Shown: positions 4,157-26,679 of the stretch, piece after piece
Layout: each line of letters opens with the position of its first letter
How positions within the stretch are numbered: position 1 is the first letter of the stretch
Assembly: GCA_000934665.2 (NCBI GenBank)
Contig: JYFJ02004076.1
Span: 1 to 34,981, forward strand
DNA: 34,981 nucleotides
Source of the DNA: Catajapyx aquilonaris
Taxonomy: Eukaryota
Direction of reading: 5' to 3'
Position numbers and translations under genes: made by a program
The notes under the pieces: model-generated
What the model saw: the letters and a program-made list of their open reading frames with translations, nothing else
Databases searched by the model: none
Told to the model about the DNA's origin: nothing

Positions 4157-4403
4157 TAATAATTTATGACAGTGCTTCCCAATTGTTTTAGTTGGCGACC
4201 CCATAAAATTGTCTCGTAATGTAATGGGCTTGCTTGCAGTGTCATTACTACCTTTGGGTGCAACCATGATTTTGGTAGATGATTATAATAATTAGAATGT
4301 GATGATTAAGAGTTATTGCGAACCATTTGATGGTGATTATGCTCCAGACTGGTGAGTAGTGTAGAAGAATTTGAATATGATGCAAGTGCAGGGGGTGCAA
4401 CAG

Positions 4404-5811
4404 TTACTCTGCTTCCTTGAATTGCGCCAGGACTATGACGTATGTGGTCATGCACCAGCCAACTGCTGTGAAGGAGACATGAACTGTGATTACACCTTTG
4501 TGTTAATCAGCTCTGTAGACTTACGGCTGTCAATAGGCCCCTGTTGACAGCAAAGTAATTGGCTGCGGATATCTCCAAGGGAGGACCGGTCAGCTTTTGT
4601 ATGAAAACTTCCATCTGAAACACACAGTTGTGCATTTCAGAAATGAAGGATTAAATGTGTAGGTGCATCACTCACATGTGCCTTGATGCTTGGATTGGTG
4701 GCCAGAGGACAAGAGTGGATGAGGTGAGGCAATGCCCTTGTGCTCTGAAAACATCAAAAAGAGTCATTATTATTATTATTATCGCACCAATGGACACCAA
4801 TGGAAGATACATTACCTGCTGAGGTATGCGTCCTAAGATGATGGTGAAGGTAACGACTGATGAGACTATTATCCCAATAATCACTATTAATATTATTGGG
4901 TCAACTATACTTTGGTATGTAATAACACTAAAAAGAAGCAAGTAAAACATATAGCCTGTAATCCACGCGACATATATGAGGAAGATGGCCATGATGAGTG
5001 GTCCGTAAGTGCTGCCCATGTCATCCACTATCAGGCAAAGGTCGCACAGCAGGTCGCTGGCAGACATTAACTTCTCAACCAGCTTGTTACCACTAGGTGC
5101 GTTTCGTTGTGTAGTGCATACATGTATTACTTCCTCATTGAAATCATCCAGCTTCAACGCGATGACTGTAGCCAAAAAAGTCACTTGCACTGGGATCAAG
5201 TGAAGCAGAAAAAGAGAGTGCCACACAATGATTATGTCAACCATGTTGTAAGATTGAAACACTAGTCCACTTTTAAGATAGGCAAAAATCATGTATGAGA
5301 CTTCAGCTGACGGCAGCAAGAAGCAAGCAGCCATCAGCAGTGCGGAATATTTTCGAAGTTTCCTCTCGTGGAGACGCAGGTTTAGTCCAGAAAAACGGTC
5401 CATTATTTTCGAAATCTGAGTGACTCTGGTTTGGCAGAAAATGTAGTGAAGCCATGGAGCACCCTCTGCTATTCCATTAAGAGTTAATACTGAGATCCAA
5501 CTTGTTGTACTCGTGTAATTGCTCCTGTACCAACCGGGTAATGTCATCCAAGTTACCTTTGCAGAATATGCAGCCAAAAGAATGAAGTGCACCATTGCAG
5601 GCCACCGTTGGTACCACTTCCAACTCTGCTCTTTCCTGGGCCAAGGACAAGGAGCGATTCCTCCAAAGGTGGCCAAGATGGACAGTGGTCTGAACGAAGT
5701 CCAAAACGCGTCTCTCTGCTCATCACTTTCTTTTGGTTTCTTCTTCTCTTCCACATGAAACACTGGTGGTGTTCGACGTAACGTGAGGAATACGCGATTT
5801 GATCTCTTCAT
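4404..5811 (-). pseudogene. Gustatory receptor GR-a, frameshifted in last exon (or sequencing error)
   Basis: Exons 5811-4816, 4744-4676, 4614-4525 and 4462-4404, all phase-0 GT-AG. Exon 4 reads TTG GCT GGT GCA TGA where paralogs read TTG GCT GCA GCA GTG ACC. This 1-nt loss creates a stop at 4450-4448 and puts TTYVIVLAQFKEAE out of frame. Confidence 0.8.
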
Positions 5812-6137
5812 TTTTCTGCAACAAGCGGTAAATACTCTGCACCTCTTTGAACCTTCACCACGGCAGCCAAGTGTACCATCACCCCCGACCACGACGTAAA
5901 CAGTCTGACCCTTTGCTGGCGACTCGTCTGAACGTGTCCAAACTATCTTAGAAATTGTGCCCCGGAGAGCCCATAAATATCACAGCATCCGAGTTAAGCC
6001 AAAGGGTGACAGTGAAAAGGAGAGTCGATGGAGGTGATCAATGACATTGTGTCCAGAAGGGAATGTTTGGGTAAGGTGGAGACAGGTCAGGTCAAAGTCG
6101 GGGAGCGGCCCCTCTCCACCCATAAATCCATAACCAG
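5812..6137 (-). promoter_or_regulatory. Conserved GR upstream/5'UTR module (copy before GR-a)
   Basis: ~300-bp non-coding block repeated in front of each tandem GR start, including a pyrimidine tract + CAG (ctccttttca(c/g)tgtca). A regulatory role is inferred only from position. Confidence 0.5.
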
Positions 6138-6273
6138 GCTATAATCTGTCACATTCATGTGGCTTTATCAGGGCTTTATGGTACAGCCAAACCTAATCAT
6201 TATTGCGGGCAATGGTGGTCATAAATATGCGCAGAAAAATTTGAATAATCTGCAAGTGCATGAGGTACAACGG

Positions 6274-7693
6274 CTATTCTGCTCCTTTGAACTGCGCCAG
6301 GACTATGACGTATGTGGTCACTGCTGCAGCCAACTGTGAAGGAGACGTGAAGAGTGATTAGCTACACTTCCACATAAGTTTATCAAAATTAATATGCTCT
6401 GCATAGTTACGGCTGTCAATAGGCCTCGGTTGACTGCAAAGTAATTGGCTGCAGATATCTCGATGGGAGGACCGGTCAGCTTTTGTATGAATACTTCCAT
6501 CTGAAACATACAGTTGTGCATTTCAGAAATGAAGGTTTAAATGTGCAGGTGCATCACTCACGTGTGCCTTGATGATTGGATTGGTGGCCCGAGGACAGGA
6601 GTGGATGAGGTGACGCAATGCCCTAGTGCTCTGAAAACATCAAAATAGTAATTATTATCACAGTCAATGGCTCTCAATAGAAGAGAGATGTCCCGGTACT
6701 AATTACTTGCTGAGGTATGCGTCCCAAGATGATGGTGAAGGTAACGACTGATGAGACGATTATCCCAAAAGCCACTACTAATATTATTGTGCCAACTATA
6801 CTTTGGGATGGTTCGAGAAGGAAGTGAAACACATAGCCGGTGATCCACACGACAAATATGAGATAGGTGGCCATGATGGATGCTCCGTAAGTGCTGCTCA
6901 TGTCATCCACTATCAGGCAAAGGTCGTTCAACATGTCGCTGGCAGATATTAACTTCTCAACCAGCTTGTTACCATTAGGCGCATTTCGTTGTGTAGTGCA
7001 GACATGTATTACTTCCTCATTGAAATCATCCAGCTTCAATGCGATGGCTGTAGCCAAAAAAGTCACTTGCGCGGGGATCAAGTGAAGCAGAAAGAAAGTG
7101 TCCCACAAAATGATTATGTCAAACATCTTGTCATATTGAAGCAGTTTTCCCCTTCGAAAGTAGGCAAATAGCTGGTAAGAGACTTCAGCTAACGGCAGAA
7201 ATAAGCAAGCAAACACTAGGAGTGCGGAATACTTTCGCAGTTTCCTCTCGTGGAGACGCAGGTTTTGTGCAGAAAAAAGATGTACTAGTTTCGAAATCTG
7301 AATGACTCTGGTTTGGCAGAAAATGTAGTGCAGCCATGGACCACCCACTGTTACTCCATTAAGAGTTAAACTTGTCAACCAACTCGTTGTACTCGTGTAA
7401 TAGCTCCTGTACCAACTGGGGAATGGCATCCAAATTACCCTTGAAGAATATGCAGCCAAAAGAATGAAGTGCACCAATGCAGGCCACCGTTGGTACCACT
7501 TCCAACTCTGCTCTTTCCTGGGCCAAGGACAAGGAGCGATTCCTCCAAAGGTGGCCAAGATGGACAGTGGTCTGAACGAAATCCAAAACGCGTCTCTCTG
7601 CTCATCACTTTCTTTTGGTTCCTTCTTCTCTTCCACATGAAACACTGGTGGTGTTCGACGTAACGTGAGGAATACGCGATTTGATCTCTTCAT
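6274..7693 (-). CDS. Gustatory receptor GR-b (7tm_7 family), 4 exons, 401 aa
   Basis: Exons 7693-6707, 6630-6562, 6500-6411 and 6333-6274, with three phase-0 GT-AG introns near the C-terminus. C-terminal signature IEISAANYFAVNRGLLTA-LAAAVTTYVIVLAQF (TYhhhhhQF). Multiple TM helices. Confidence 0.92.
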
Positions 7694-7961
7694 TTTTCTG
7701 CAACAAGCGGTAAATACTCTGACCCTCTTTGAACCTTCACCAGGGCAGCCAATTGTACCATCACCCCCGACCACGACTTAAACTGTCTGATCCTTTGCTG
7801 GCGACTCGTCTGAACGTGTCCAAACTGTTTTAGAAATTGTGCCACGGAGAGCCCATTAATATAACATCCGAGAAGCCGAAGGGTGACACTGAAAAGGAGA
7901 GTCGATGGCGGTGATCAATGCCATTGTGTCCAGAAGGGAGTGTTTGGTTAAGGTGGAGACA
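7694..7961 (-). promoter_or_regulatory. Conserved GR upstream/5'UTR module (copy before GR-b)
   Basis: Near-identical to 5812-6085 and to the reverse complement of 11010-11277. Confidence 0.5.
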
Positions 7962-8230
7962 TATCTATCTGTCAACTTCATGTGGCTCTAGGTCTAGGGT
8001 ACATCCAAATTTATTCATTATTGTGGACAATGGTGGTCATAAATTTGCGTAGAAAAACACTTAAGCGGAGACAGTGTTACGTGGCAGTTTCACTATTGGC
8101 ACAGTTGAAAGGTGATTATGTTTCAGACGTAGTGACATGTGAAAACAAAATCTGCATACGCAGGCGGTGCAACAGTCATTCTGCTCCCTTGAACTGTGCC
8201 AGCACTATCACGTATGTCGTCACTGCTCCA

Positions 8231-9628
8231 GGGGTCATTCCAGGACAGGACGCCCCTAGGACAACACCCTCCATTTTTTGATTTTGATGAAATGCTGCAT
8301 GCAAGTCCCAAAATGGACGAGTAAGTAAATACCCAATTTTCAGACACTTAGGTTCAATAGGCCAAGAGTTATGCCATGGTCAAAATTGAAGAAAATCCGA
8401 AACATGTACTCAAAAATCGCACCATATCTCAGTAAGTACTTACTCTACCGCGACTTTTCGCATATCGATAGATTTGCAATAGTGTGGAGGAGACGATGGA
8501 TGCATCAAAAGAATTTTTCAGTGCAGGAAAAGCGTCATTTTCGCGAGGTCAAGTTTTGTGACCTTTGACCTTGACCATGTCCTCCGGTCGAAATGCTTGA
8601 GAATAAACACACTGATACCCACACATCTGTTGTATTCACCTGTATAAGTTTAATTTTAGTACGAAAATGTCTTCTGGGCGAAAAAAAATCCAGACTGCTA
8701 CCGTGTCATTGAAATCTTCAATGGCGGTAAGGTCGAGATTGCATGCCGAGTCTCTTGCAATCTCGACCTTATTGATTAGCGGATGGGTATTTTTTTCTTG
8801 AGACCGACGAGTATTACGCCTACCAACTCCGGGGCTACGCCGTCATGTTACCTGGGACACAATTTTGCAGTTTACAATCATGTGTCTGCATTTAACCTCC
8901 TGAAGCCCAGATTTGTTTTAAAAAATTTTTTTAAATTTTAATTTTTAATTTTTTTAAAAAAAATTTACAATAATTTAAAAACCCAATGGCTAAAGGGCTG
9001 TACGCGGGGCGTCAGGAGGTTAAATCAAATCAGGAAATTTTTATGAGGGCCATCCCCTAATCACCATCCACTAATCAATAAGGTCGAGATTGCAGGAGAC
9101 TCGGCATGCAATCTCGACCTTACCGCCATTGAAGATTTCAATGACACGGTAGCAGTCTGGATTTTTTTTCGCCCAGAAGACATTTTCGTACTAAAATTAA
9201 ACTTATACAGGTGAATGCAACAGATGTGTGGGTATCAGTGTGCTTATTCTCAGGCATTTCGACCGGAGGACATGGTCAAGGTCAAAGGTCACAAAACTTG
9301 ACCTCGCGAAAATGACGATTTTCCTGCACTGAAAAATTCTTTTGATGCATCCATCGTCTCCTCCACACTATTGCAAATCTATTGATATGCGAAAAGTCGC
9401 GGTAGAGTAAGTACTTACAGAGATACGGTGCGATTTTTGAGTCCATGTTTCGGATTTTCTTCAATTTTGACCATGGCATAACTCTTGGCCTATTGAACGT
9501 AAGTGTCTGAAAATTGGGTATTTACCTACTCGTCCATTTTGGGACCTGCATGCAGCATTTCATCAAAATCAAAAAATGGAGGGTGTTATTCTAAGAAAAA
9601 AGGGGGCGTCCTGTCCTGGAATGACCCC
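8231..9628. mobile_element. Non-autonomous foldback/MITE-type DNA transposon with ~560-bp terminal inverted repeats
   Basis: 8231-~8788 and ~9063-9628 are near-perfect inverted repeats (ggggtcattccaggacaggacgcccc ... ggggcgtcctgtcctggaatgacccc). Removing the element restores GR-c exon 4. The target duplication reads as CA (2 bp) or CCAG (4 bp, with termini 8232/9627). No transposase ORF. Confidence 0.92.
8896..9019. mobile_element. 124-bp piggyBac-like mini element nested in the foldback element
   Basis: TTAA at 8892-8895 and 9020-9023. TIRs CCTCCTGAAGCCC / GGGCGTCAGGAGG around an A/T-rich core. TTAA TSD with CC..GG ends is typical of piggyBac. Confidence 0.7.
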
Positions 9629-10970
9629 CAGCCAACTGTGAAGGAGACAATAACAGTCATTAGCTGCACATTTTTATCAAATCCGCCCTGTACATGACTT
9701 ACCGCTGTCAATAGGCCCCGGTTGACAGAAAAGTAATTGGCTGCTGATATCTCGATGGGAGGACCGGTCAGCTTCTGAACCAGTACTTCCATCTGAAACA
9801 TACAGTGGTACGCTTCAGGAAATGCAGATTGAATGGGGGAAGAGTTGAGGTGCATCACTCACATGTGCCTTGATGCTTGGATTGATGTCCCGAGGACAGG
9901 AGTGGATGAGGTGTGGCAATGCCCTCGTGCTCTGAAAACATCAAAAAGAAGCGGATTATAGTCCCAGCAAATGACACTCACTGTCAGTGGAAGATATACA
10001 CCATACCTGCTGCGGTATGCGTCCCAATATGATGGTGAATGTAACGAGTGATGACACCATTACCGCAATAACGAATATTTCAATTATTGGGTCAATTATA
10101 CTTTGGTGGGCGTTCACAAGCATGTAAAAGACAAATTCGGTAATACGGATGACATATATCAAGAAGGTGGCCATGATGGATGCTCCGTAAGTGCTGCCCA
10201 TGTCCTCTACTATCAGGCAAAGGTCGTACAAGAGATCGCTGGCAGACATTTAACTTCTCAATCAACTCTTCATCATTGTTGTGATCCTCCCTGGGACCGG
10301 TGCTTTGGGCTGTACAGACATGGATTACTTCCTCGTTGAAATCATCTAGCTTCAGTCGAAGGACTGTAGCCAAAAAAGTCACTTGCACGGGGATCAATTG
10401 TATCAGAAAGAAGGAATGCGCAACAATGATGGTCTGAAACATGTTGTGAGACTCAATCTGTTGTCCACCTCGAATTAGCAAAAATATCACGTATGTTTGT
10501 TCAGCTAACGGCAGCAAGAAGCAAGCAGACGCCAGAAGTGCGGACCATTTTCGCAGTTTCTTCTGGTGGCGACTAATGTTCAGTGCGGAAAAGCGGTGCA
10601 TCAGTTTCGAAATCCGAGTAATTCTGGTTTGGCAGAAAATGTAGTGAAGCCACGGACCAACCACAGCTACTGCAAAGAAAGTTATGATTGTCGCCCAAGA
10701 GGTTGTGCTCGTGCCATTGTTCCTGTGCCATTTCTGAAGTGGTTTTCAAGTCAGTACTGCTATGTAAGTGGCCAGCAGAATGAAGTGCACCATTGCAGGC
10801 CACCGTTGGTACCACTTCCAATTTGCATCTTCCCTGGGCCAAGGACAAGGAGCGATTCCTCCAAAGGTGGCCAAGATGGACAGTGGTCTGGCCAACATTC
10901 TTTACAATTGAATCAATTTGAATGTACTGTTCTGTACAGGCGTAGGAAGGTCATAAATAATAACCTGAGC

Positions 10971-11277
10971 ATGGATTTATTGGTGGAGAGGCCGCTCCCT
11001 GAACTTGACCTTGTCTCCACCCTAACCAAACATTACCTTCTGGACACAATGGCATTGATCACCTCCATCGACGCTCCTTTTCAGTGTCACCCTTTGGCTT
11101 CTCGGATGTTATATTTATGGGCTCTCCAGGGCACAATCTAAGACACTTTGGGCATGTTCAGACGAGTCGCCAGCAAAGGATCAGACAGTTTAAGTCGTGG
11201 TCGGGGGTGATGGTACAAGTGGCTGCCCTGGTGAAGGTTCAACGAGATTCAGAGTATTTTCCACTTGTTGCAGCAAA
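10971..11277 (+). promoter_or_regulatory. Conserved GR upstream/5'UTR module (copy before GR-d)
   Basis: Same module as 5812-6137, in the opposite orientation. Confidence 0.5.
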
Positions 11278-12697
11278 ATGAACAGATCAAATCGCGACTT
11301 CCTCACGTTACGTCGACCATCACCAGTGATTCAAGTGAGCGTGGCAATGCCACCGGAAGGAAGTGAGGAGCAGAGAGACGCGTTTTGGACTTCATTCAGA
11401 CCACTGTCCATCTTAGCCACCTTTGCAGGAATCGCTCCTTGTCCTTGGCCCGGGAAAGATGCAAATTTGAAGTGGTACCAACGGTGGCCTACAATGGTGC
11501 ACTTCATTCTAATGGCTGCATATGTCGCAAAAGTGACTTGGATGCCATTCACGTTTTGGTACAGGAGCAGTAACACGAGCACAACAAGTTGGTTGACAAC
11601 ATTAACTCTTACTGGAGTACGGGTGTGTGGTCCATGGCTTCACTACATTTTCTGCCAAACCAGAGTCATTCAGATTTCGAATCTAGTACACCATTTTTCT
11701 GCACTAAACTTGCGTCCTCATGAGAGGAAACTTCGAAAATATTCTACACTGCTGGTGGCTGCTTGCTTCTTGCTGCCGTTAGCTGGAGTCTCACACATGA
11801 TATTTGCCTACTTTCGAAGAGGACAACTGTTTCAATCTTACAACATGTTGGACATAATCATTGTGTGGCACTCTTACTTTCTGCTTCACTTGATCCCCGT
11901 GCAAGTGGCCTTCTTGGCCACAGCCATCGCATTGAAGCTGGATGATTTCAATGAGGAAGTAATACATGTCTGCACTGCACAACGAAACGGACCCAGTGGT
12001 AACAAGCTGGTCACGAAGTTAATGTCTGCCAGCGACATGTTGAACGACCTTTGCCTGATAGTGGATGACATGGGCATAACTTACGGAGCATCCATCATGG
12101 CCACCTATCTCATATATGTCGTGTGGATTACCGGCAGTGTGTTTTACTTACTTCTTGATACAGACCAAAGTATAGTTGGCCCAATAATATTAGTAGTGGC
12201 TTTTGGGATAATCGTCCTATCAGTCGTTACCTTCACCATCATCTTGGGACGCATACCTCAGCAGGTAATTAGTACCGGGACATGTCTCTTCTATTGAGAG
12301 CCGTTGACTGTGATAATAATTACTATTTTGATGTTTTCAGAGCACTAGAGCATTGCGTCACCTCATCCACTCCTGTCCTCGGGCCACCAATCCAATCATC
12401 AAGGCACACGTGAGTGATGCACCTACACATTTAAACCTTCATTTCTGAAATGCACAACTGTACATTTCAGATGGAAGTATTCATACAAAAGCTGACCGGT
12501 CCTCCCATCGAGATATCTGCAGCCAATTACTTTGCAGTCAACCGAGGCCTATTGACAGCCGTAACTATGCAGAGCATATTAATTTTGATAAACTTATGTG
12601 GAAGTGTAGCTAATCACTCTTCATGTCTCCTTCACAGTTGGCTGCAGCAGTGACCACATACGCCATAGTCCTGGCGCAGTTCAACGGAGCAGAATAG
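11278..12697 (+). CDS. Gustatory receptor GR-d, 4 exons, 401 aa
   Basis: Exons 11278-12264, 12341-12409, 12471-12560 and 12638-12697, all phase-0 GT-AG. Ends LAAAVTTYAIVLAQFNGAE*. Confidence 0.92.
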
Positions 12698-12708
12698 CCG
12701 TTGTACCT

Positions 12709-13006
12709 GGTTATGGATTTGTGGGTGGAGAGGGGCCGCTCCCTGACTTTGACCTGACCTGTCTCCACCTTAACCAAACATTACCTTCTGGACACAATGG
12801 CATTGATCACCTCCATCGACTCTCCTTTTCAGTGTCAGTCTTTCGCTTCTCGGATGTTATATTTACGGGCTCTCTTGGGCACAGTTTGGACACGTTCAGA
12901 CGAGTCGCCAGCAATGAACAAGACTGTTTAGGTCGTGGTCGGGGGTACACTTGGCTGCCCTGAAGGTTCAACGAGGTTCAGAGTATTTTCCATTTGTTGC
13001 AGAAAA
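12709..13006 (+). promoter_or_regulatory. Conserved GR upstream module (copy before the displaced GR-c 5' end)
   Basis: Module begins 12 nt after the GR-d stop and runs into ATG 13007. Confidence 0.5.
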
Positions 13007-13191
13007 ATGATCATATCTAATCGAGACTTCCTCACGTTAGGTCGAACATCACCAGTGATTCAAGTGAAAGTGACATGTGCTCTATTGCCAGAAACCATGT
13101 TTTCCCGAACTTCTACTGTGCTTCAGGTGGGAAAAGAGAAATCTGCAGGGGGAACAGATGAGGTTAAGGAAAATTCTTTTTGGACAGTGTT
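13007..13191 (+). pseudogene. Displaced 5' fragment of GR-c
   Basis: Encodes MIISNRDFLTLGRTSPVIQV...VLQVGKEKSAGGTDEVKENSFWTV, homologous to the GR-d/GR-a N-termini. Ends TGG ACA GTG TT, which joins in frame to C AGA CCA at 10890 (-) to give FWTVFRPLSIL. Confidence 0.8.
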
Positions 13192-13303
13192 ACGTGGCAG
13201 TTTCACCATTGCAGTGGAGTGACACGGACTGAAAATAGGCAAGGCCAAATCGAGAGGACATTCCCTATAGCTGGCACTTAGGATTGGACAAGAAATTCTG
13301 CTC

Positions 13304-14752
13304 ATGATAAGGTCCAACAGAGTGGTTTCGATGAAGGAAATGAACAGCTCAAAAGACAATGCATTTTGGGAAGTGTTGAGACCAGTGGCCATCATGTCAG
13401 TGGTTGGAGGAATCGCTCCTTTTCCATGGCCCAAGAAAGAGGACGATTTCAGAGGAAAGTGGTACAGACTGTGGCCAACAATGGTTCACTTCCTCTTACT
13501 CGCCACTTACATCGCCATCTTCAGCTGTCATCCTCCGAAGGTCCTCCTGACCAGTGAGAACCAAGAGAAAAGCCAGAATAAAACATTGACTGGTCTCATT
13601 GTGCAGGCCCTTCTTAGCATTGCCTCGTGGCTGAACTTCATCTGGGTTCAAAAGAGTCTCACGAATATTTGGAAACTAATCAACCGATTGTCAAATCAAG
13701 ATGTGAGCAGGCACAAAAGGTCACTGCGAAAATGTTCATTGTTACTGGCAGTAGCCTCCGCCTTATTTCCTTTACTGGAATTGTCTAGGATGATTACTGC
13801 TCTGGCTCTTGAAGGGGTGTTATTTCAGTCGTATTACTTGTTCTTTGTGTTCTATGTGTGGCACTGTTTATTCCTGCTTCACATTATTCCCAGTCAGTTG
13901 GTATTCCTGGTACTAGTTATCCAGTCGCACATTAAGGATTTTAACAATGAAATCACAAGAATATGCCATTTTCTACACCAATCCACTCCGGAGCAACAAA
14001 ATAGCGAAAGTCTAATAAGGAGCACTAGCTATTCAGCTGATCTCTATTACGAATTCAGTGCCTTAGTGAACACGATTAACAACACTTATGGCATACACAT
14101 CATGATCTTTTTCCTGACATGTGTCATCTGGACTACGAAATCTCTATTTTGTTTAGTCTCGATTTCCGAGCCATTAATTATCACCTATACGAGACTCATT
14201 GTCATTACCCTCATCATCGTTTCTGTGGTGGTTCTCACTATTGTTTTGGGATCAATTGAAAGACAGGTACAGTGTTACATTTAGCAGTTAGTTTGTGACC
14301 ATATTAATGTTTCAACATTTTCAGAGCAGCAGTTCCCTGGACGATCTCATGAACGCAAATCGTCGGGTTGTCAATCCGAGTGTAAAGGCAGACGTAAGCG
14401 TTAGATGGTGTTCAGTGCAGTTTGTTTTTCATCATGTAATAACTGAAGAAATTAATTGCACTTTCGCTTCATTATTCAGATCGATTCGCTGATCCAGAAG
14501 ATGACTGGTTCTCCCATAGAGATAACTGTGGCCAATTATTTCACGGTTAATCGAAGCCTCTTGACGTCAGTAAGTTGTGATGCTAATTATTTTAGAGTCC
14601 GGATTTGTAGGCAAATGCCTATTTAGTTCCTTAACACTTCCTTAACTCTTCAGATCGCCGGATCTGTGACCACGTACCTTATAGTTCTGGCTCAATTCAA
14701 AGGGGCTGAGAAGTTGGAGGTTTCTTCTACCACAGCATCACCTAACATATAG
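13304..14752 (+). CDS. Gustatory receptor GR-e (more divergent paralog), 4 exons, 406 aa
   Basis: Exons 13304-14266, 14325-14393, 14480-14569 and 14654-14752. Internal exons are the same 69 and 90 nt as in the other GRs. Signature IEITVANYFTVNRSLLTS-IAGSVTTYLIVLAQF. Confidence 0.92.
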
Positions 14753-15059
14753 CAAGAGCACAGTGAGGCTGCACAGACCGTGTAAGGCAACTTATGCAGC
14801 TGCTTTTTATTTCAAAAGCTATGAAAATATGTTCCTGTTACATATTACACATCAAATATGTCGTCATTATCCTTGAATATGTTAGAAAACCAATATATTG
14901 AAGAGCCTCAAAAACATGAGTCACCCCGTTTAATATTATTTATTGGATCTATTTTGATACATTGATTGATGCGAGACATGCAAAATATTTCTATTCTTCC
15001 ACAGTACGACTGTACAGACGTACAGTACAGCACATAGGAGCATAATTACCGTATGTCTG

Positions 15060-15905
15060 TTACGGTGTCGAGCGTATCATACGCAATTTGTCCACGACTA
15101 CACAGCACAGTTCTCCCAAAAACGCAACCAACGCAGCTATGTTTCCAGACAAGAGAATCAGAAAAGGACCTTCCACATGATCCCAGGTGAACTGGACATT
15201 TTCATCGTCAAGTGGGTACCACTTATAGCGTATTTTGTCAAAGGTCACGATCCTCATGAGATCATGTTCGTGAATACTCTGCCAAAGAATGTCCAGACCT
15301 ATGCTATTAAAAACATGCATCCAGTGGTCAATGTTCTCAGCCAAGATGTTGTCCTTCAGGACTATTAGTGAGGCGTGGACAACAGCAAGTGTGTCGGAGG
15401 ATGTGAAGGTCTCAGAATTGCGGAATAGTGTGGCAAAATAGGCGACATCTTTCAAGACACCGTCGGACTCGAGTATTACAACATCGTCTGTAAGGATGTC
15501 ATCGTATCTCCTGTCAATGTAGCGTACAGCACGTATTTTATCCAAAAGGTCGGCATACATATCTCGGAATTCGACAACTGCTTCTTCTAGGAACATTTGC
15601 ACTACTCGAGACGTTTCTATGGAGAATTTTGAATGAGACAGCTCTTGAATGTCTCTGGGTATTTTTTCCACTGGAGGAAAAACCAGTGTGTCCAGACTCT
15701 GAGGGATTGGTCCGTCCCAGTCGTGGGTGACAGCCAGTGGACATTCAGTGTCCATGACGAGGTTTCTTTGGAGAATATTGTTGACAAACTTTGGAATCTG
15801 CTCCTGTGTATCATGTTCAGGTGTTAAAGTAACTAGACCCGATGCGACGTTGGCAAAAAAGATCACTGCTACTGCTCCAACCAACACCATTTTGAATTCA
15901 TACAT
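15060..15905 (-). CDS. Truncated IR-derived single-pass protein ('mini-IR'), 281 aa
   Basis: ATG 15905 with a signal peptide. ECPLAVTHDW resembles IR-A DCLLVLGHDY. LIVLKDNILAENIDHWMHVFNSIGLDILW resembles the IR-D S2 end FGFDKSNVLSPKIFRYHKRIQESGLVAQW. The C-terminus HVEGPFLILLSGNIAALVAFLGE is an IR last helix. No S1 motif, M1, pore or M3. Confidence 0.72.
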   Translation of the reverse strand: MYEFKMVLVGAVAVIFFANVASGLVTLTPEHDTQEQIPKFVNNILQRNLVMDTECPLAVTHDWDGPIPQSLDTLVFPPVEKIPRDIQELSHSKFSIETSRVVQMFLEEAVVEFRDMYADLLDKIRAVRYIDRRYDDILTDDVVILESDGVLKDVAYFATLFRNSETFTSSDTLAVVHASLIVLKDNILAENIDHWMHVFNSIGLDILWQSIHEHDLMRIVTFDKIRYKWYPLDDENVQFTWDHVEGPFLILLSGNIAALVAFLGELCCVVVDKLRMIRSTP

Positions 15906-16968
15906 CGTATCGGTTGTAATTCCCAACTGTCCCTTCCTCCACCATGCCTCAGAGTGTCACCTTGTGCTTCATTCTGGCCGGATATCACACAAATGAATTT
16001 TTAATTTCTGCATATCCTTTCAGCAATTCTGTGCAAGTGTTTCCGGCAAACGTGCCACATTCATCAAAGGACTCTTGGCACAAGGTCCCATCGATTGTTG
16101 TCGACTGAATTCCCGAAAATTCATCGCTTTATGGCAACGGAAATATTTATCGGTCTGTATGTGTGACTGCGAATTTTATAATATAGTAAAATGGTGCAAT
16201 ATCGTCAGATAATCCCACAAGCTCTCACAAAAATATCATCCTGAAATATGTCCCAACAGCCCACATCAACAGCATTTTGATATTCATTATGTTATTTCCC
16301 CAGTGTCTGTTCCTATACTTTGCCTATAGAAATGGCGTCCAACAGAATTGTTAATTACAGCAGAGTCGGTTGATTATTATGCATGAGAGACCTTTGCGGC
16401 ATGAGCTACAGAGCGGTCCCGGTCACTCCGTCACATGGATCTTGATCAAAGGAATGGTGCTCAAGGTATTATCGATTGTTATGGATAGAATTTCTGGGTA
16501 TGGGTCGTTATGTGGCACACACGTTGTTGATCTCAAATGTTGAAAATTGATGAAATAATATGCAAGTAAACATCTGGATGACTAATGCCTCTTTCTGGTT
16601 TTATACATCAGTCGACTCCCAAACTTGGTCAGTGGTTCATACACATAATTATGCAACGTTACTAACTAAACGGACAACTTCATTTTTTCTGTCTGTAGAT
16701 TCTTCTGATTTTTAGAAATACCTTATTACGAAAGCAGCACAACATTTTTTTTTTCGAAAAGGATGCGTAATGTTTGCGGTCACGTGGTATTTGCACGACC
16801 CCTAGATAGGATTGGAACCAACCAAACATTGACATAGTTGATGGGAAATTTCTGATGCACAAAGTGATTTGTCCAAGGTAGTGATATGCCTCATATACAT
16901 GCCTCATATATATGCACAAATATATTAGGCCAATGTAGTGATTTGGCCACGGAAGCTGAAGGTCGGGA

Positions 16969-17081
16969 CAGAAGGCCCTTATCGACGAAGTGGAGAGGTA
17001 CAGCCTGCTCTACGAGGTGGGGAAGACCGAGTATCGGAACAAGGGGAAGAACGATATGGGCGAAAGCCCTAGGAAGACCAA
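16969..17081 (+). pseudogene. MADF/Myb-SANT-like domain remnant, probably from a PIF/Harbinger DNA-binding gene
   Basis: GC-rich island reading QKALIDEVERYSLLYEVGKTEYRNKGKND, then WAKALGRP after a frameshift, followed by a gtaagt donor. Fits the MADF pattern LIxxVxxxxxLYxxxxxxY(K/R)N...W....LG. Confidence 0.6.
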
Positions 17082-17802
17082 GTAAGTTTTAATCAAATGC
17101 ATTCTGAACCATCCTGCCCATGTTCCGAGGGCCTACACAACACTTCACTTACTATTCCCATCCCAGGTCATAAATACGGGAATAATTGTTTAATACCAGT
17201 GAATAATGTACCGTATGAGAAACAGTTACGTTATGCATAGTTCGCAACCCGTTCAAATCCTTTCTATACTGTTCTCTTTGTACTGGTTATGTAATAGTCT
17301 AAGCAGGGTATTGATATGTACTGTACATGGGATATGACTGTATACTGTGACTGTACTAGGGTATCAGTATACTGGCAGGTGGAATTTTTCGTAATTATAC
17401 TAAGCAGATTTATTTTCTCTAAAAATAGCCAGTACTATTTTCCCCTAGGTTTATAGGATTATAATATTATGAGCTTGCCTTTCACATAGATGATATCATT
17501 AAAGGATTGATCCTCCTTTACTCCTTTGAGATAGTGGAAAATGTATATCTCAGAATTTCACGTTTCTAAAAGGGAAGTAATCGTGATGGCATAATTTATC
17601 TGGTTCGCAAAGCATCATTTTTGTGCTTATAGGATTTTGCATGAATGTGAGGGAGATTGTAAGGGAAAAAATCGGAAAACTTATTACGATGAAAATTACA
17701 TGGACCACCATCCTGCTGGATCATTACAGTCAATATAGTCAAATCAGCAAACAGTCACTTGTGTATCCCTTTTGGTTTAGTCGGTGTACGTGAGTGTCCA
17801 AG

Positions 17803-19755
17803 ATGAAGCTGCTCGTGTGCATCGCTGTTCATCTGTGGCTCACTTGCATCGTCGCAGAGTTGATAATACGTCAAAATGATAACAATCATCTGTCCCTGGT
17901 GACCTCCCTCATTGCCAGAATACACCGTGAGAGAAATGACTGTCTCCTGGTACTGGGTCACGATTACGAGGTCATCCCGGATTCCATCAACGACCTAGTC
18001 AGGAACATTACAAGCGGAGGAGGACTGGTTACTGCTGTCCGTTGGTCCGAGTCTACGATACTTCCATCGCCCAACCCAAACCGTGACGGCAACTTTGAGT
18101 ACTGGTTCTCATGGATGGAGAGGACCACTGCCCAATGGCTGACCAACTGCGGCTTCTTTGTGATGATCTACCACAAAGGTCACTTCCAGCAGGTCATGAG
18201 GTACATGGCCAGTCTGGTCAGGACGAACCCCAGGATAGACCAATACTTGTACTACAGCCCGGATTCGGACGTCTCTCAGGACATGCTGAACATGGACTAT
18301 CGATTCCTGTTCCAAGTGGGACTAGTCCAAGAGGATCCGGACACCATCAGCATTGTCAACAACTGTCATTTCTGCAACAAAGGACAGGCCAAGGTTGTCC
18401 AGAGGGGCAAGTACAGGATCCAATCAGGGCTTAGTCCTAATGATCTGAAGATATTCCCTGATTACTCCAACAGTGTGAACGGACGATATGTCAACATCAC
18501 TTTCTCTGTTGGGTCGTCCAAAGCCGACATGGATTATTTTTTGGAAAACGACATGCCGGTGTTGCCGTACATAAGACCATTTCACACAGCTGCTCAACAT
18601 TTCAACTTTGACTTCCATATCGAGTCACCTGTGGAAGAAGCTGGGATCGAAGCTGTTTTGCCAGATGGGAACTGGACAGGCATCATAGGTCCTTTGCAGA
18701 GAAGAGAGTCGGAATTGGGGGCAGCTCTATGCGCCAGTGGTGTGATGGCTGTCATTGACTTGACCACTTGTTTCTACCCAACGACAATCACTCTTACTAC
18801 CAGGATGCCTCGACCTCTGTACACTTGGGGTGCCATAGCCAAGCCTTTCACACCGGATATGTGGGCAGCAATATTCGCAACAGCAACAGTGGTCACCCTT
18901 GTCTTCTACTTTCTCCTAAAAGTAGAGTACAGCATGGGAAAACCTTTTCCTGTAGAAGCAACCCCACCCACTCACCTCTCCTTGTACTCTCTCCGGTTCT
19001 CATTTTCCGCCCTGATTGAAGAAAACCCTAATCTGATCCCAACAGTCGACTCGTTGAAGGTATTGCTGTGCTTTTACTGGCTGTTTTGCGACCTGATTGT
19101 CCTGGCTTACGAGGCCATGTACTTCGGATTCATGGTCTCTCCAGCACTGGAGCCTCTGCCCAAGAGCCTGAAGGAGATGGTGGACTGGCCCAACTGGAAG
19201 TGGGACACCATGGACTATGTGACGGACTCGGCCAACATGCTGACGGAGTTTTCAGAGGAAGAGCACATCAAGAAGTTGAGGGCCGGGATGCAAGGAGGCA
19301 GCGACATGACCGGATGCATGGTGAGGACGATTGAAGAGGACTTCAGCTGCCTGGCCTTCGATCAGTTCCTGGACGCCTTGTCCTGGCAGTTTATCGACTT
19401 GGAAGGAAATCGTCCTGTCCAAACTGTGCAGGACTCTTCCTTGTGGATCACTGCTTGTTTATCAACCCCCAAGTATTCAATTATGTTTCACGCATTCAAA
19501 CGTTTCGAGTTGTCTCACGTCAAGGGAAACTTGTTCGGCTTCTGGACCACCGAATTTTCATACTTGGTTTCGCTGATGGCCATGAGAGATGCCAGGGCAA
19601 AGAACCTGTCCTACACACCTCCCATGGCCCTCAACATCAGTCAGTTGAAGGCTCCGTTTGCCATTCTGGGAACCTTCATAACCATTGCTTTCTTCGTCTT
19701 CATTGGCGAGGTCATCAAATTCCGTGTGGACAAGAAGAAGAAAGAGACCAAGTAA
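17803..19755 (+). CDS. Divergent ionotropic receptor (IR-B), single coding exon, 650 aa; close paralog of IR-A
   Basis: ATG 17803. Colinear with IR-A at a constant offset of 16643 nt, with the same motifs. Confidence 0.9.
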   Translation: MKLLVCIAVHLWLTCIVAELIIRQNDNNHLSLVTSLIARIHRERNDCLLVLGHDYEVIPDSINDLVRNITSGGGLVTAVRWSESTILPSPNPNRDGNFEYWFSWMERTTAQWLTNCGFFVMIYHKGHFQQVMRYMASLVRTNPRIDQYLYYSPDSDVSQDMLNMDYRFLFQVGLVQEDPDTISIVNNCHFCNKGQAKVVQRGKYRIQSGLSPNDLKIFPDYSNSVNGRYVNITFSVGSSKADMDYFLENDMPVLPYIRPFHTAAQHFNFDFHIESPVEEAGIEAVLPDGNWTGIIGPLQRRESELGAALCASGVMAVIDLTTCFYPTTITLTTRMPRPLYTWGAIAKPFTPDMWAAIFATATVVTLVFYFLLKVEYSMGKPFPVEATPPTHLSLYSLRFSFSALIEENPNLIPTVDSLKVLLCFYWLFCDLIVLAYEAMYFGFMVSPALEPLPKSLKEMVDWPNWKWDTMDYVTDSANMLTEFSEEEHIKKLRAGMQGGSDMTGCMVRTIEEDFSCLAFDQFLDALSWQFIDLEGNRPVQTVQDSSLWITACLSTPKYSIMFHAFKRFELSHVKGNLFGFWTTEFSYLVSLMAMRDARAKNLSYTPPMALNISQLKAPFAILGTFITIAFFVFIGEVIKFRVDKKKKETK

Positions 19756-20479
19756 TGGAACAGCCGCATTGTTACAGTCTAATGGGACAGGCACTTGCAA
19801 CACTAAAATATCACGCAGAGTTATTGCATGCGATAAGCACAATCAACTGACATTTAACATGTGTTTATTCCACCATTTAATGGCTACTACACAGCAGCAA
19901 ATATCGCCCCAACAAATGCATGATGTATTCTGCAATAATAGGAGTGTATGCACTCTTATGTCCATTAACAGATTCAATGTGTAAAAGTATTCTCTCATTG
20001 CTTCAGATCAGAATATATTTTACTCATTCCAACAATATTGATATGCCCATCTTTAAAGCGACATCTATGTCCATCTGTGATGAATGAAGTGCATTAAATA
20101 TACCGACATTCAAGTGATGTTAGTATAGACACTGACGTTTTATTTTGCATATGTAGATAGGTCTAGAACAATTATTGACATGTTGAATTAATAATGAAAT
20201 AGCTTAGTCATAATTGAGTATGAAAAAACGTCACTCAAGTTACATGCACTTGTCAAAATGATCATAGCACATTACAATTAATAGCATCGTGGTTCTTTAG
20301 AGTGATTGTAGTACTACGTTTTACTCACAAATGACACCACCATCCAACATATAGTATGAAGCATTAATGTGAAGCAAAGGTCCTGTCCTATAAGTGCGAC
20401 TTTATGAATTATTGTAGTGAAATTAGTCCAAGAAAAATAAAATAGGTTTAACATCCACAAAATTATACGATTTCCTTTC

Positions 20480-21078: not shown

Positions 21079-21118
21079 TATATAAGTAAGACGATGACAT
21101 CGTGATTTTTCAGTCAGT
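21079..21118 (+). promoter_or_regulatory. TATA box + arthropod initiator of the FPPS-like gene
   Basis: TATATAA at 21079-21085, and overlapping TCAGTCAGT at 21110-21118 about 30 nt downstream. ATG at 21144. Confidence 0.7.
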
Positions 21119-21143
21119 TTCAAGCAAGACACAAGTGAACATT

Positions 21144-22596
21144 ATGGCCTCGGTTATCCAAGAAGAACTGGCCAGATTGGCCACGTAAGTAACAACAATG
21201 TTTGCATGATTATACCACATAATATTGGGCACACTTACATTTTCAGATGCAACAATGTAGTGAAGAATCCGATGAAAGAAGAACGCGAAAAGCTTTTCTC
21301 ATTATTCCCTCAAGTTGTGACCGATCTGACTCAAGAAATTGACCATCCTGTGCTTCAAGACCTAACTAAATGGTACACGGACGTTCTTCAGTACAACATC
21401 GTTGGAGGAAAGATGACCAGAGCACTCACGTTTGTAATGGCCTGCACGCATCTGATGGAAGGCTCGTTAAATGAAGCCAAATTACAGTTGATTTACAGCA
21501 TAGGATGGTGTATCGAACTGGTCAGTAATTTTTTAAATATATTTTTGACTTTTTTTAAAATATTTATTTGTAAAGCTTCAGGCAGCCGTGTTAGTAGCAG
21601 ACGATATTATGGACAGGAGTGAAACACGACGTGGTAAACTCTGTTGGTACAAACAAAGCCACGTGGGAGTAATGGCAGTTAACGACGCTTTTTTACTGGA
21701 CTCTGGAGTGTACTGCCTTTTACGAAAATACCACGAGAAGCAGCCGTATTACACGAATATTCTTGATGTACTTCACAAGGTAAGTGTACCCTGAATATTT
21801 CATACACATTTTAACATTATTTTCTCATCTTCTAGGTACATTTCTACACAAATTTGGGCCAAACACTTGATAGTCTTAGCTGTAGCACAAAAGCCACTCC
21901 TAGACTACACATGTTCAACGACGAGAGACTTGAGATGATATGCAAATACAAGACCACTTATTACACCTTCCTGCTACCAGTTTCATTGGCCATGTACGTG
22001 GCTGGTATAACCGACGAGAAGCTTCATAGCCAAGTGGACAAAGTGTTTGAGAGGGCTGGAGTATTGTATGAAGCAGAGAATGATTTTTTGGATTGTTATG
22101 GAGACGAGGTGATGACTGGAAAGGCTGGAACTGATATCCAGGAAGGGAAATGCACTTGGTTTGTGGTCACGGCTTTGAAACTGGCCAATAAGGAGCAGAG
22201 GAAGATTCTGGAGGTTAGGTTCGAATATTTGTAAAAATTCGTAGAATTCGTAAAATTCGTAGAATTTACACCTAAATATTCTAACAGTTGTCTGCGAGAT
22301 TATTATTTTTTTTGCGAAATATAGTATTAATAATATGATTTTTTTTTAAATTTTAGGAATGTTTTGGAAGTAGTGATCCAGATGATGTCATAAGAGTGAA
22401 GAATCTCTACAATCAACTGAATCTTCCTCGTCGTTTTCTGAAGTACGCTGAAGATCTGCGGTCTTCTTTGTTTGAAGATATCTGCAGTCTTCCTTCCGAG
22501 ATGTTCCGGTCATTGTGCAAACGAGTAATGGACGAGGCGTACATCAGAAACACGTCTTATGTCAAAAAAATTATTGAAGAGCAATTTCCAGTTTGA
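21144..22596 (+). CDS. Farnesyl diphosphate synthase-like trans-isoprenyl diphosphate synthase (divergent; candidate terpene synthase), 5 exons, 378 aa
   Basis: Exons 21144-21184, 21247-21520, 21576-21779, 21836-22213 and 22357-22596 splice in frame. Motifs [90 protein letters not shown]. Confidence 0.92.
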
Positions 22597-23581: not shown

Positions 23582-26500
23582 ATGTCGCCCATCATTTTTC
23601 TGCTGCTGGTTGTACCTGCTCATACAACGGTACGTACTTTGTATTCACTTGTTGGTATGTGTAATTGACATCAAAAATTTCAGACTATATTACCAACCCT
23701 GCCAGATGAAACGGACATACAGTTGGTCAGTCGGTTCGTACAGGAGATACAACTTAAACAAAAAGATTGTCTGCTAGTTATCGGACACGACTACAGGATA
23801 ATGCCATGGTCCATCGTAAGTCTGGTAGGAAATATGAGCCACGAAGGTGTCACAACGGTGCCGGTACGTTGGTCCGAACTGACACCGGAACCGGACAAAA
23901 ACACCGGAGAATCAGGCAACTTCGAGTACTGGTTCTCATGGCTGGAAAGACCCACAGCCAAGGTACGTGACAAGTGCACAACGTTCGTCCTGCTGTACCA
24001 TCGAGACCATTTCGAAGCTCTGATCCGGTATGTGGCCAGTACAGTCCGGATGAACCCGAGGACAGACCGAGTGGTGTACTACAGCCCGAATTCGGACGTG
24101 TACGGAGCCATGTTGCATCCGGACTACCAGTTTCTGTACCAACTAGGACTGAGTCACGATCCGGCTTCCAAGTCACTCAGGATTGGCAACAATTGTCATT
24201 ATTGCAACTCAGGACACGCGAAAGTGGTCGACAGAGGAAGGTGGGTCAAAATTTCTGAAATATTGCATGTCCATAGACACGATAGGCAACCCACAGTGCA
24301 GATGTGTCTGGGGGCACCAATTTGTTTGCATTTTGTACCTAGACACACGTGTCACATAGGTTGCCTTGTGTGTCTAGGGATAGATTTGGAAATATTGCCG
24401 CCCCTAGACACACTTCAGCATTTGTGTCTAGGGGCATGCTAATTTTTCTAAAATTCCATTGAAAATTTTTAAGGAGCGCAACCGAGTGCGCTCCCACACT
24501 CGCGCAGCTCTCTTGTTGTGACATCAATATCGCCAGAGTTACTCTCCAGCGACCAACGTGACCTCTAAGTAGGGCTGTGCGATATCCGAAAGTGCATATC
24601 GACTTTTGATACTCAAAAATATCGAATCGATATATCGATATATCGAGAATCGAAATACCGTCATCGAATCGATATATCGATATATCGAGAATCAAAATAC
24701 CGACATCGAATCGATATATCGATATATCGAGAATAGAAATACCGACATCGAAAAATATCGAAAATCGCGATATTCGATACATCGCACATGCCAAGGGTAG
24801 GATATCGCAACTTCGATATTAGGAAAATATCGTATCGACAGTCGATGTATCGAAATATCGCACAGCCCTACCTCTAAGGTTCGTTCAAGAGCCTTGGCAA
24901 AGTCGAAAACGTCAGCCATTTTATTCCCCTCTAAGAGTAGCGTTGGAAATCAGTTCAGCGCTTACCCACTATACAGAGCTTACCAGATGTTATTAATAAT
25001 TCCAACCCTGCAAGTAGCGCGAACTGTGGTGCGCACTCGGTTGCTCTCATTAAAAACTTACCTACCGCAGCTAATTTTTAAATATATTTTGAACCAGGTA
25101 TGACCCACACGGGTTGTGGCCTCCCGAACTTGACCTGTTTCCTGACCTGTCCCGAGACCTGCATGGTCTCCATCTAAACGGGTCGTTTCCTGTCCCGAGC
25201 ACTCCGGACCAGATGCGAAGTGCTGTTGCCCTGGGCCTGCCGACCTTTACCTTCATGAGGATGTACCTGCTAGTAGGAGATGCGGTCAACTTCGACTGGC
25301 ACCTCGAAGCACCAGTGGCCGAACCTGGTGTTGAACAAGAGGCACTGACTGCAGACGGAAACTGGACCGGAATCATAGGTCGTCTATTGCATCGTCAGAT
25401 CCAGATGGGATCGTGTGTGGCGACTGCTCTTAACAATGTATGTGATCTGTCGTACCCGTACTATACCGGAAAGGTGGAGTTCATACGACGTACTCCAGGT
25501 CCTGTGTACTCATGGATGTCCATTGTACGACCGTACACACCCGGAATGTGGTGTTGTATCCTTGCAGCCGCAACTCTATGTAGCGGACTATTCTGCGCAA
25601 TGATATACGTACATCACGACCCGTTCGGTACCAATCCGCCTCGATCCATACCTCTGTACTCATTACGGTACATGTTCTCCAGCCTCATTGAAGAGAACCC
25701 GAACCTCATTCCGACCGCCGATTCGCTCAGAGTTTACATCGCATTCTGGTGGTTGTTCAGCGAGGTGATTCTCTGCGGGTTCGAGGCATTGTACATCGGG
25801 TTTCTGGTGTCCCCTGAGATGGAATCGCTGCCTGGAGACATGAAGGAGATGGTGGACTGGCCCAACTGGCAGTGGGGGTCAATCGGTTGGCTCAAACCGT
25901 ACATTATCACGTTCACGGCCGAGTCGGAGCTGGATACGCATATGGCGCTCAAACAAGGATTGCAGGTATCAAGAGAAATCCGCACTAACACGGAGAGAAC
26001 TGGGCGTACCAAGGAGAAACGCCCAATATCCAAACCTGGAGATATGACGTTTTTCCTTGGGACGACAGCAGATCTGGTAATATTTTCTTAGAACGGCGGC
26101 GGCATGTCCCAAGCAGAAACTACCTATCTCCAGGTTTGGAGATATGGCATTTCTTCTTGGGACAGCAGATCTGATCTTTTCATATAGGACGGTGGAGACA
26201 CCACGGATTGTCTTCTACGAGCGATCGAGCACGACTTCAGCTGCATTGGACTACTGGACATCCTGATATCCATGTCCTACCAGCGGATGGACATGGAAGG
26301 GACGCCACCGGTCGAGATATCGAACGACAACTCGATCCAGTTCTTGGCTGGAATAGCGGTTCCGAAGTATGCAATATTCGGTCCGATACTAGGTCGCACG
26401 CAACTGTACGCCAGGGACACTGGTATGCTCCAGAAGTGTGAAGATGACTTTGCACATGCTTTTGCAGTGCTGGGATTGAGGGAGGCAAGGGCTGAAGGAA

Positions 26501-26679
26501 GGTTGTATAAGTATTCAATGGCTCTCAATATCGGGCATATGAAAGGGATATTTGTCATGCTGGTGTTGCCACTTGCTGTGAGCATTGCGGTGTTTGCAGG
26601 CGAGATGGGGTGTTTTTGCAGGGGTAAGAATAGAGGTAAGTTGTCTGGGTCAAATCAGGTCATGCACTTCACAAATTGA
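23582..26679 (+). CDS. Divergent ionotropic receptor (IR-C), 4 exons, 654 aa; same subfamily as IR-A/B
   Basis: Exons 23582-23629 (signal peptide MSPIIFLLLVVPAHTT), 23684-24240, 25098-25965 and 26188-26679 splice in frame. Shares GNFEYWFSW.ERPTA, NNCH.CN.G, DGNWTGIIG, LIEENPNLIPT and KEMVDWPNW with IR-A/B. Confidence 0.88.
24473..25049. mobile_element. Older TTAA-flanked TIR element in IR-C intron 2 (Kolobok-like ends)
   Basis: TTAA at 24469-24472 and 25050-25053. Imperfect ~35-bp TIRs ggagcgcaaccgagtgcgctcccacactcgcgc / gcgcgaactgtggtgcgcactcggttgctctca. Superfamily call is tentative. Confidence 0.6.
24570..24870. mobile_element. 301-bp hAT-type MITE with internal ATCGAT-rich tandem repeats
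   Basis: TIR TAGGGCTGTGCGATAT / ATATCGCACAGCCCTA. Exact 8-bp TSD CCTCTAAG at 24562-24569 and 24871-24878. Three ~42-bp internal repeats at ~24621-24750. Confidence 0.92.

Follow-up and report, generated by a model that had tools for sequence, protein, structure and literature searches.

The 34,981-nucleotide contig JYFJ02004076.1 of Catajapyx aquilonaris (GenBank assembly GCA_000934665.2), called the window in what follows, holds an animal chemoreceptor cluster, with arthropod matches in the Atlas. On its minus strand, at 15060–15905, lies an uninterrupted open reading frame (ORF) of 281 codons which looks like an ionotropic receptor (IR) reduced to its two extremities, and is referred to here as the mini-IR. 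A first-pass annotation of the window had proposed that this frame encodes a maintained single-pass protein with a possible accessory, dominant-negative or ligand-presenting role, as opposed to a pseudogene in decay. The comparisons described below support its derivation from an IR at both ends and reveal closely related copies elsewhere in the genome; the frame is probably a young relic of receptor turnover.

The open reading frame and its predicted product

The mini-IR translates from 15905 to 15063 and is closed by a TAA stop codon at 15062–15060. The enclosing stop-to-stop frame (15060–15956) counts 298 codons, a length reached in none of 200 windows shuffled in 1-kb blocks, whose longest stop-free frames averaged 153.5 codons and went up to 274. 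A second in-frame ATG is present at codon 6 (15888–15890). It is the likely true start, judging from an alignment in which the mini-IR segment FKMVLVG faces SKMKLLV of the neighbouring IRs, whose start reads KMKLLV.

Exactly two hydrophobic stretches are detected in the hydropathy profile (windows above 1.6), at residues 2–29 and 244–277, and the scan shows no equivalent of M1 or M3. The first one contains a signal-peptide-like segment (residues 1–23, ending in NVASG; 15837–15905), which aligns with the signal peptides of the neighbouring IRs; cleavage would take place after the region of residue 23. It is followed by an N-terminal IR-like block (residues 24–75; 15681–15836), homologous to the first 66 residues or so of the neighbouring IRs and ending in PIPQSLDTLV. 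The next segment, residues 76–245 (15171–15680), aligns colinearly in the profile comparison; it starts like an M3–S2 linker (PPVEKIPRDIQELS) and continues like an S2 lobe, of which residues 112–220 are conserved in an outside relative, P0005. A single transmembrane (TM) helix (residues 246–272; 15090–15170) aligns with the M4 helix of the neighbours and keeps their F..GE signature (F262, E265). A short tail, residues 273–281 (the DKLRMIRSTP region; 15063–15089), is predicted to be cytoplasmic from the topology of IRs and ionotropic glutamate receptors (iGluRs).

Three cysteines only are found (C55, C267 and C268), and the protein contains no N-x-S/T sequon. Neither the CxxC nor the G-x-W-x-G motif of the neighbouring IRs is present in its sequence. 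Translation would yield, according to this predicted topology, a type-I single-pass membrane protein. The intact frame, the signal peptide and the single-pass form announced by the first-pass annotation are all recovered here, with two hydrophobic segments, IR-derived ends and neither S1 nor channel core.

Receptor-like ends and the missing middle

The N-terminal end was compared with a hidden Markov model (HMM) built from the N-termini of the four IRs of the window, and the null distribution was obtained by shuffling residues 24–80 with the signal peptide kept fixed. Residues 1–80 of the mini-IR score 14.2 bits, a value reached by none of 1000 shuffles, which bears out the IR-like start noticed at first reading. 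The alignment covers residues 10–75, and its final PIPQSLDTLV is the equivalent of IPDSINDLV in the neighbours. The feature that marks this subfamily in the cluster, namely a signal peptide and the start motif C-L-L-V-x-G-H-D-x-x-x-I-P-x-S-I-x-x-L-V, is found in the mini-IR.

At the other end, an HMM of the whole part that follows M3 gives 12.2 bits, reached by none of 1000 full shuffles and none of 1000 shuffles in 20-residue blocks. Removal of the TM helix lowers the score to 2.9 bits, which 7 of 1000 shuffles reach. A longer correspondence was obtained with hhalign, by aligning the mini-IR together with P0005 to the IR alignment. Residues 71–276 are then colinear, over 193 columns and with a score of 28.6, with residues 444–650 of P0003, the product of the single-ORF IR gene at 17803–19755 on the plus strand (frame 17794–19755). 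Column shuffles, 30 full and 30 in blocks, scored 15.5 ± 2.1 and 15.4 ± 2.3 respectively; the highest of the 60 was 22.4, and none reached 28.6. The 'probability' reported by hhalign is about 6%. Residues 76–182 taken alone are weakly supported, 104 of 2000 shuffles reaching their score, and the aligned piece PPVEKIPRDIQELS falls on the post-M3 linker. The C-terminal part kept in the mini-IR would probably comprise the whole M3–S2 linker, S2 and M4. The final helix is thus as first described, and the part of S2 retained is probably larger than the mere end of this segment that had been recognised. Profile comparison of the ends with full IRs, which had been proposed as a check, points to IR homology on both sides beyond what shuffling produces, and the structural half of the earlier interpretation is supported to this extent.

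Two pairings made by MAFFT were discarded. One placed residues 76–137 on the IR N-terminal domain, and an HMM of that region gives −2.2 bits, reached by 1795 of 2000 shuffles. The other paired the IR linker motif PLPKSLKEMV with PIPQSLDTLV of the mini-IR; it was rejected because the mini-IR has both motifs in tandem, and because a paralogous record described in the next section follows the N-terminal motif up to codon 74.

Sequence retention within the conserved part is low. Nine columns are invariant in the S2–M4 region of the four window IRs, and the mini-IR keeps about four of them (an isoleucine, K184, F262 and E265), a count which depends on the alignment. Both cysteines that are invariant in the S2 of the neighbours are absent. 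As far as the alignment can be trusted, this low retention would be a sign of lost constraint.

General databases return little for such a sequence. No Pfam family was found for the mini-IR (P0001, E ≤ 1) or for its residues 72–281 (E ≤ 10), Lig_chan and the S1 family Lig_chan-Glu_bd both being unmatched, and PDB sequence searches with the mini-IR and with its profile gave no match at E ≤ 10. Pairwise BLAST against the neighbours was not significant, the best value (E 0.046, single comparison) being obtained over the last helix. The Pfam and PDB blanks are to be expected, since the surviving parts are equally invisible to both databases in intact neighbours. The third exon of the fourth IR (26188–26679) indeed hits no iGluR family in Pfam, and the matches of P0003 to 71 iGluR sequences of the PDB at E ≤ 0.01 (best 5.7e-10) are confined to its residues 266–474. 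Against Pfam Lig_chan (PF00060), P0003 gives E 5.7e-6 and 26.6 bits, for a gathering score of 30.8; P0002 (E 3.5e-5) is also below gathering. P0003 can be regarded, on the basis of its sequence, as a bona fide member of the iGluR family.

An exhaustive phmmer search of the mini-IR through 1.84 billion representatives yielded two matches. The first one, P0005 (145 residues; E 1.6e-6, 31 identities out of 100 over mini-IR residues 117–214), is an unnamed singleton cluster and appears to be the one believable outside relative. The second one, P0006 (380 residues, internally repeated), was set aside as compositional, its six stretches all lying on the hydrophobic residues 2–42. A word-indexed protein search found nothing with the mini-IR, at near or at longer lengths, and nothing with the intact P0003 either, so that this collection seems to be devoid of relatives of the organism and its blanks have little weight; metagenome scans with the mini-IR profile and with P0005 confirmed no relative. 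Language-model features from the Atlas place 14 of the 30 nearest clusters of the whole mini-IR in the Lig_chan set. For residues 76–245, the proportion is 23 of 30 named clusters, with scores of 0.91–0.93, which gives a lead, not a proof, for the S2 identity. The nearest clusters are arthropod proteins of about 190–220 residues, some of them named glutamate receptor, which may be gene-model fragments. Structure prediction with AlphaFold2 gave a predicted local distance difference test score (pLDDT) of 32.7 from the single sequence and 44.3 from an 11-row alignment, only the TM helix exceeding 70. A Foldseek search of the PDB with this model returned no match at E ≤ 0.001 and is uninformative at such a low confidence.

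The extent of the loss can be measured in P0003 numbering. The likeness on the N-terminal side ends at V69 and that on the C-terminal side starts around V448, which leaves about 379 residues (70–448, about 1.14 kb) without counterpart, close to the 370 estimated at first. The missing parts are the rest of the N-terminal domain with its CxxC motif, S1 with its G-N-W-T-G motif, M1, the pore loop and M3. No intron hides them, as had been argued, the frame running through the junction without interruption. Within 14285–17661, tblastn with three full IRs detected zero IR remnants, which indicates that the middle is gone and not relocated nearby; in a nucleotide self-comparison of the window, nothing else resembles 14300–17490.

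The HMM and hhalign boundaries meet at a junction between codon 74 (L) and codon 76 (15681–15686). In the 13 bases after the junction (15671–15683, minus strand; GTTTTTCCTCCAG), a GT is followed by a run of pyrimidines and then by CAG, as if a splice donor and an acceptor had been fused. This may be due to chance, the F-P-P codons being rich in pyrimidines and the prolines aligning with the linker of the neighbours, or may be a trace of the origin of the deletion.

In iGluRs, both lobes of the ligand-binding domain (LBD) are built from S1 and S2. Two features of a channel subunit are missing in the mini-IR, the M1–pore–M3 core and the S1 half of the LBD. It cannot form a pore, nor, because S1 is absent, a closed ligand-binding clamshell. 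A two-lobed LBD interrupted by the channel domain is the arrangement described in PMC6472016.

Paralogous copies and the fate of the reduced gene

Copies of the mini-IR were sought among DNA contigs of two samples that bear the same species label, three sets from the first and one from the second, genome copies being counted at a nucleotide identity of at least 85%; statements about contigs refer to the matches listed. The flanks of the mini-IR are single copy, with a word depth in X1 of about 37 at 15808–16743. Within the ORF bins, the depth rises to 72 (14872–15105), 133 (15106–15339), 100 (15340–15573) and 341 (15574–15807). Other loci at least 85% identical must therefore cover both halves of the frame, and the N-terminal block most. 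Parts of 15165–15682 are matched colinearly by several distinct contigs whose depth is that of a single copy. One of them, 356 nucleotides long, shows 29 differences over 15333–15506 and 11 over 15578–15682, and carries 74 letters in place of 71, a difference of 3 nucleotides.

Another match, X5 record 27, bears directly on the junction. It fits 15685–15762 (78 nucleotides, 94%) with 5 differences, then diverges exactly at codon 74, which places the breakpoint at 15684/15685. Its next 27 letters, translated by hand in the ORF frame, read L-L-S-N-M-S-S-A-G. This continuation resembles what follows LV in full IRs (LVRNITSGG, LVGNMSHEG), unlike the FPPVEKIP of the mini-IR. These 27 letters, from a run of unknown kind, constitute slim evidence that the record is a close paralogue undeleted at the junction.

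The great divergence pointed out by the first-pass annotation holds inside the window, where the neighbours are distant, and does not hold genome-wide, where paralogous pieces are at least 85% identical. The assumption of great age, drawn from these distant neighbours, is thereby removed. Neutral decay of the ORF was simulated with an indel-to-substitution ratio of 0.1. The probability for the frame to stay open and unshifted is 0.39 at 1% divergence, 0.14 at 2%, 0.06 at 3% and 0.009 at 5%. That the frame is still open implies selection, unless the deletion is younger than a few percent of neutral divergence. The argument that the frame is diverged yet open, hence maintained, is weakened, since close relatives exist, the copy may be young, and a young in-frame deletion would be expected to be still open.

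The following scenario can be drawn. A copy of a divergent ('tuning'-type) IR gene would have lost about 1.1 kb of its interior in a single in-frame deletion, or else two tandem paralogues would have recombined illegitimately with an equivalent outcome. Codon 74 or so of the N-terminal region would have been joined straight to the linker that follows M3, and most of the N-terminal domain would have gone, together with the S1 half of the clamshell, M1, the pore loop and M3. As the M1 and M3 crossings would have been lost together, the remaining parts would keep their membrane sides. If translated, the product would consist of a signal peptide, about 50 N-terminal residues, an extracellular S2 half-domain, M4 and an inside tail of about 10 residues. 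The S2 half is unlikely to fold into a clamshell, since S1 is missing. The mini-IR is probably a young relic, still undisrupted, left by birth-and-death turnover in the receptor family, as opposed to a selected protein. IR families that turn over in this way leave many fragments, and a few deletion copies that are in frame and still open are to be expected in a genome rich in IR genes; both points lean towards a relic. In these terms the mini-IR would be an ordinary product of turnover, in an unusually tidy, in-frame form.

Several points weigh against a relic. The deletion is in frame and preserves the topology, and about 1 in 3 random large deletions would be in frame. If it were as old as the divergence of the S2-side paralogue listed (83–90% identity), the probability of an open frame would be about 0.01 or less, as computed at 5%. 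The in-frame reading of X5 record 27 spans just 27 letters. The junction itself falls inside 47 nucleotides (15678–15724) covered by none of the contigs listed, the exact ones, from three short-read runs, reproducing the window up to 15677 and from 15725. The GC content at the three codon positions of the mini-IR (0.555/0.302/0.477) is coding-like and near that of the neighbouring IR gene at 27498–29603. Lastly, the AATAAA hexamer signalled by the first-pass annotation is indeed present (14939–14944, minus strand), 116 nucleotides downstream of the stop, a plausible distance for a polyadenylation signal; its evidential value is weak, with 41 AATAAA in the window for 31.7 expected by chance.

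The main competitor is a maintained single-pass protein, with the S2 half-domain outside and M4 as an anchor, which would serve as an accessory or dominant-negative subunit of IR complexes. Its proposed action would be the packing of M4 on the channel helices of a neighbouring subunit, or contacts of the lower lobe. An open, in-frame ORF which keeps its topology, its signal peptide and one TM helix agrees with this proposal, as do the coding-like codon positions, the AATAAA beyond the stop, the conservation of the S2-like core (112–220) in P0005, the 3-nucleotide length change of the 356-nucleotide contig and the fact that the ORF would not outlast about 3% of neutral divergence. The short arthropod Atlas clusters bring a further lead, with the same reservation about gene-model fragments. 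It is nevertheless an unlikely explanation: half a clamshell is not expected to fold alone without S1, the two S2 cysteines of the neighbours and any sequon are absent, the close relatives allow a recent origin, with at least one of them apparently undeleted at the junction, and a few open deletion copies are expected by chance among many IRs. More doubtful still is an expressed pore-less IR derivative presenting the S2 half-domain at the dendritic surface, with M4 docking on IR heteromers or poisoning them. Such derivatives might form a small family, as several of the paralogous contigs listed cover the S2-side block.

An assembly artefact, in which two IR loci sharing a short repeat would have been misjoined, appears very improbable. 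The gap of 15678–15724 between the contigs listed does border the stretch of the ORF with the highest repetition, and would suit such an error. However, the contigs of three runs are exact on either side of it, that bin is covered according to the depth table, and a gap among the contigs listed, which are a part of those matched, proves nothing; the two sides of the junction are not alike at the nucleotide level within the window, and a false join would need to keep the frame and to fall precisely where M3 ends and where the LV motif of the N-terminal part has just passed. Finally, the hypothesis of a fortuitous frame, or of a lineage-specific membrane protein without kinship to IRs, with an end likeness that would be compositional, is hardly credible: the Pfam, PDB and pairwise BLAST blanks, the low hhalign 'probability' and the lack of significance of the middle part alone would fit it, but the shuffles with a fixed signal peptide or 20-residue blocks are beaten (0/1000, 0/1000 and 0/60), the alignments are colinear and stop and start at one point, the S2–M4 of the neighbours is equally unseen by Pfam and PDB, and the Atlas features of residues 76–245 lead to the Lig_chan set.

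By its apparent descent, the mini-IR belongs with the divergent IRs of the cluster. Divergent arthropod IRs are described as mostly single-exon and clustered (Croset et al. 2010, PMC2924276). The mini-IR lies in a cluster with three single-ORF IRs and an intron-bearing one, shares with the divergent 'tuning' IRs the N-terminal start, the post-M3 linker, an S2-like region and M4, and is intronless like the single-ORF ones. Unlike them, it is deprived of about 379 residues, hence is no channel subunit and has no clamshell ligand binding. In drosophilids, IRs are reported in the same article to follow birth-and-death evolution, with 49 of 926 classed as pseudogenes, defined by short fragments, frameshifts or stops (PMC2924276). 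In the lobster, the account given in PMC6150509 mentions more than 200 putative IR sequences set aside for their small length and missing domains. The mini-IR resembles such pseudogenes and fragments as a partial copy in a tandem cluster, with missing domains and copies at least 85% identical elsewhere. It differs from them by its intact frame and in-frame deletion: essential domains are lost (about 379 residues) and the frame is open over 15905–15063, so that it counts as a fragment, not as a disrupted ORF.

Two other systems can be compared with it. The Ir75a 'pseudo-pseudogene' of Drosophila sechellia reportedly gives a full-length working receptor through read-through of a premature stop. 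Both genes look defunct by annotation rules and might give a protein, the difference being that the pore and S1 coding parts of the mini-IR are physically absent. Cryo-electron microscopy structures of tuning IRs are presented as keeping only the R2 lobe of the amino-terminal domain within a working subunit (bioRxiv 10.64898/2026.09.30.755715). IRs thus tolerate the evolutionary loss of half a clamshell domain; these tuning IRs have kept a complete LBD and channel, whereas the mini-IR has lost half the LBD and the channel. No pore-less IR was described in the sources returned by a targeted literature search, and the statement is limited to that search. Since repertoire studies such as that of PMC6150509 routinely discard IR sequences that lack domains, pore-less forms have not been looked at systematically.

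If the mini-IR is a relic, it gives a sharp picture of the way in which chemoreceptor families lose copies, with exactly the channel core removed by one in-frame deletion. It also calls for caution with automated annotation, where such a deceptively intact ORF would be taken for a protein. If it is maintained, IR genes would be recyclable into non-channel membrane proteins, with a testable entry into the regulation of IR complexes. Auxiliary or decoy subunits derived from receptors would form a new class for invertebrate chemosensory channels if the mini-IR were a maintained, expressed pore-less derivative.

The surrounding chemoreceptor cluster

Besides the gene encoding P0003, single-ORF IR genes are found at 1160–3103 (plus strand) and 27498–29603 (minus strand). 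The fourth IR (23669–26679, plus strand) is spread over three ORFs. It was considered as a broken gene, an option rejected because two GT..AG introns, located by eye at 24241–25097 (phase 2) and 25966–26187 (phase 0), account for the three ORFs; their removal restores colinearity with the single-exon IRs. The cluster thus mixes intron-bearing and intronless IRs. The first of these introns contains a tandem repeat, in which an opposite-strand ORF (24339–24818) reads a repeated peptide.

Two of the IR genes belong to a segmental duplication carrying the whole gene. Its copies, 973–3152 and 17597–19793, are 88.8% identical over 2202 nucleotides; the encoded proteins are 86–89% identical and both frames are open. 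This duplication is recent.

Very high DNA-contig depths are observed on both sides of the mini-IR, about 4180 at 13234–13467, 4240 at 14404–14637 and 300–530 at 16744–17211, for a single-copy value of about 37. These stretches are probably transposon-derived repeats flanking it.

The region 4363–14284 contains five copies of a seven-transmembrane gustatory-receptor-like gene, on both strands, whose proteins are 35–77% identical; one of them matches 7tm_7 (gustatory receptor) at E 7.4e-10. The copy at 9628–10890 is split across two frames and is probably a pseudogene, and further fragments are present at 12704–13195. An inverted repeat (8231–8786 and 9064–9628; 565 nucleotides, 95.8% identity) lies between two of these copies. 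Another observation concerns the ORF at 21098–21622 (plus strand), which weakly matches a polyprenyl synthetase (E 3.9e-5, below the gathering score) and probably represents a single exon of a housekeeping gene, unrelated to the receptors among which it lies.

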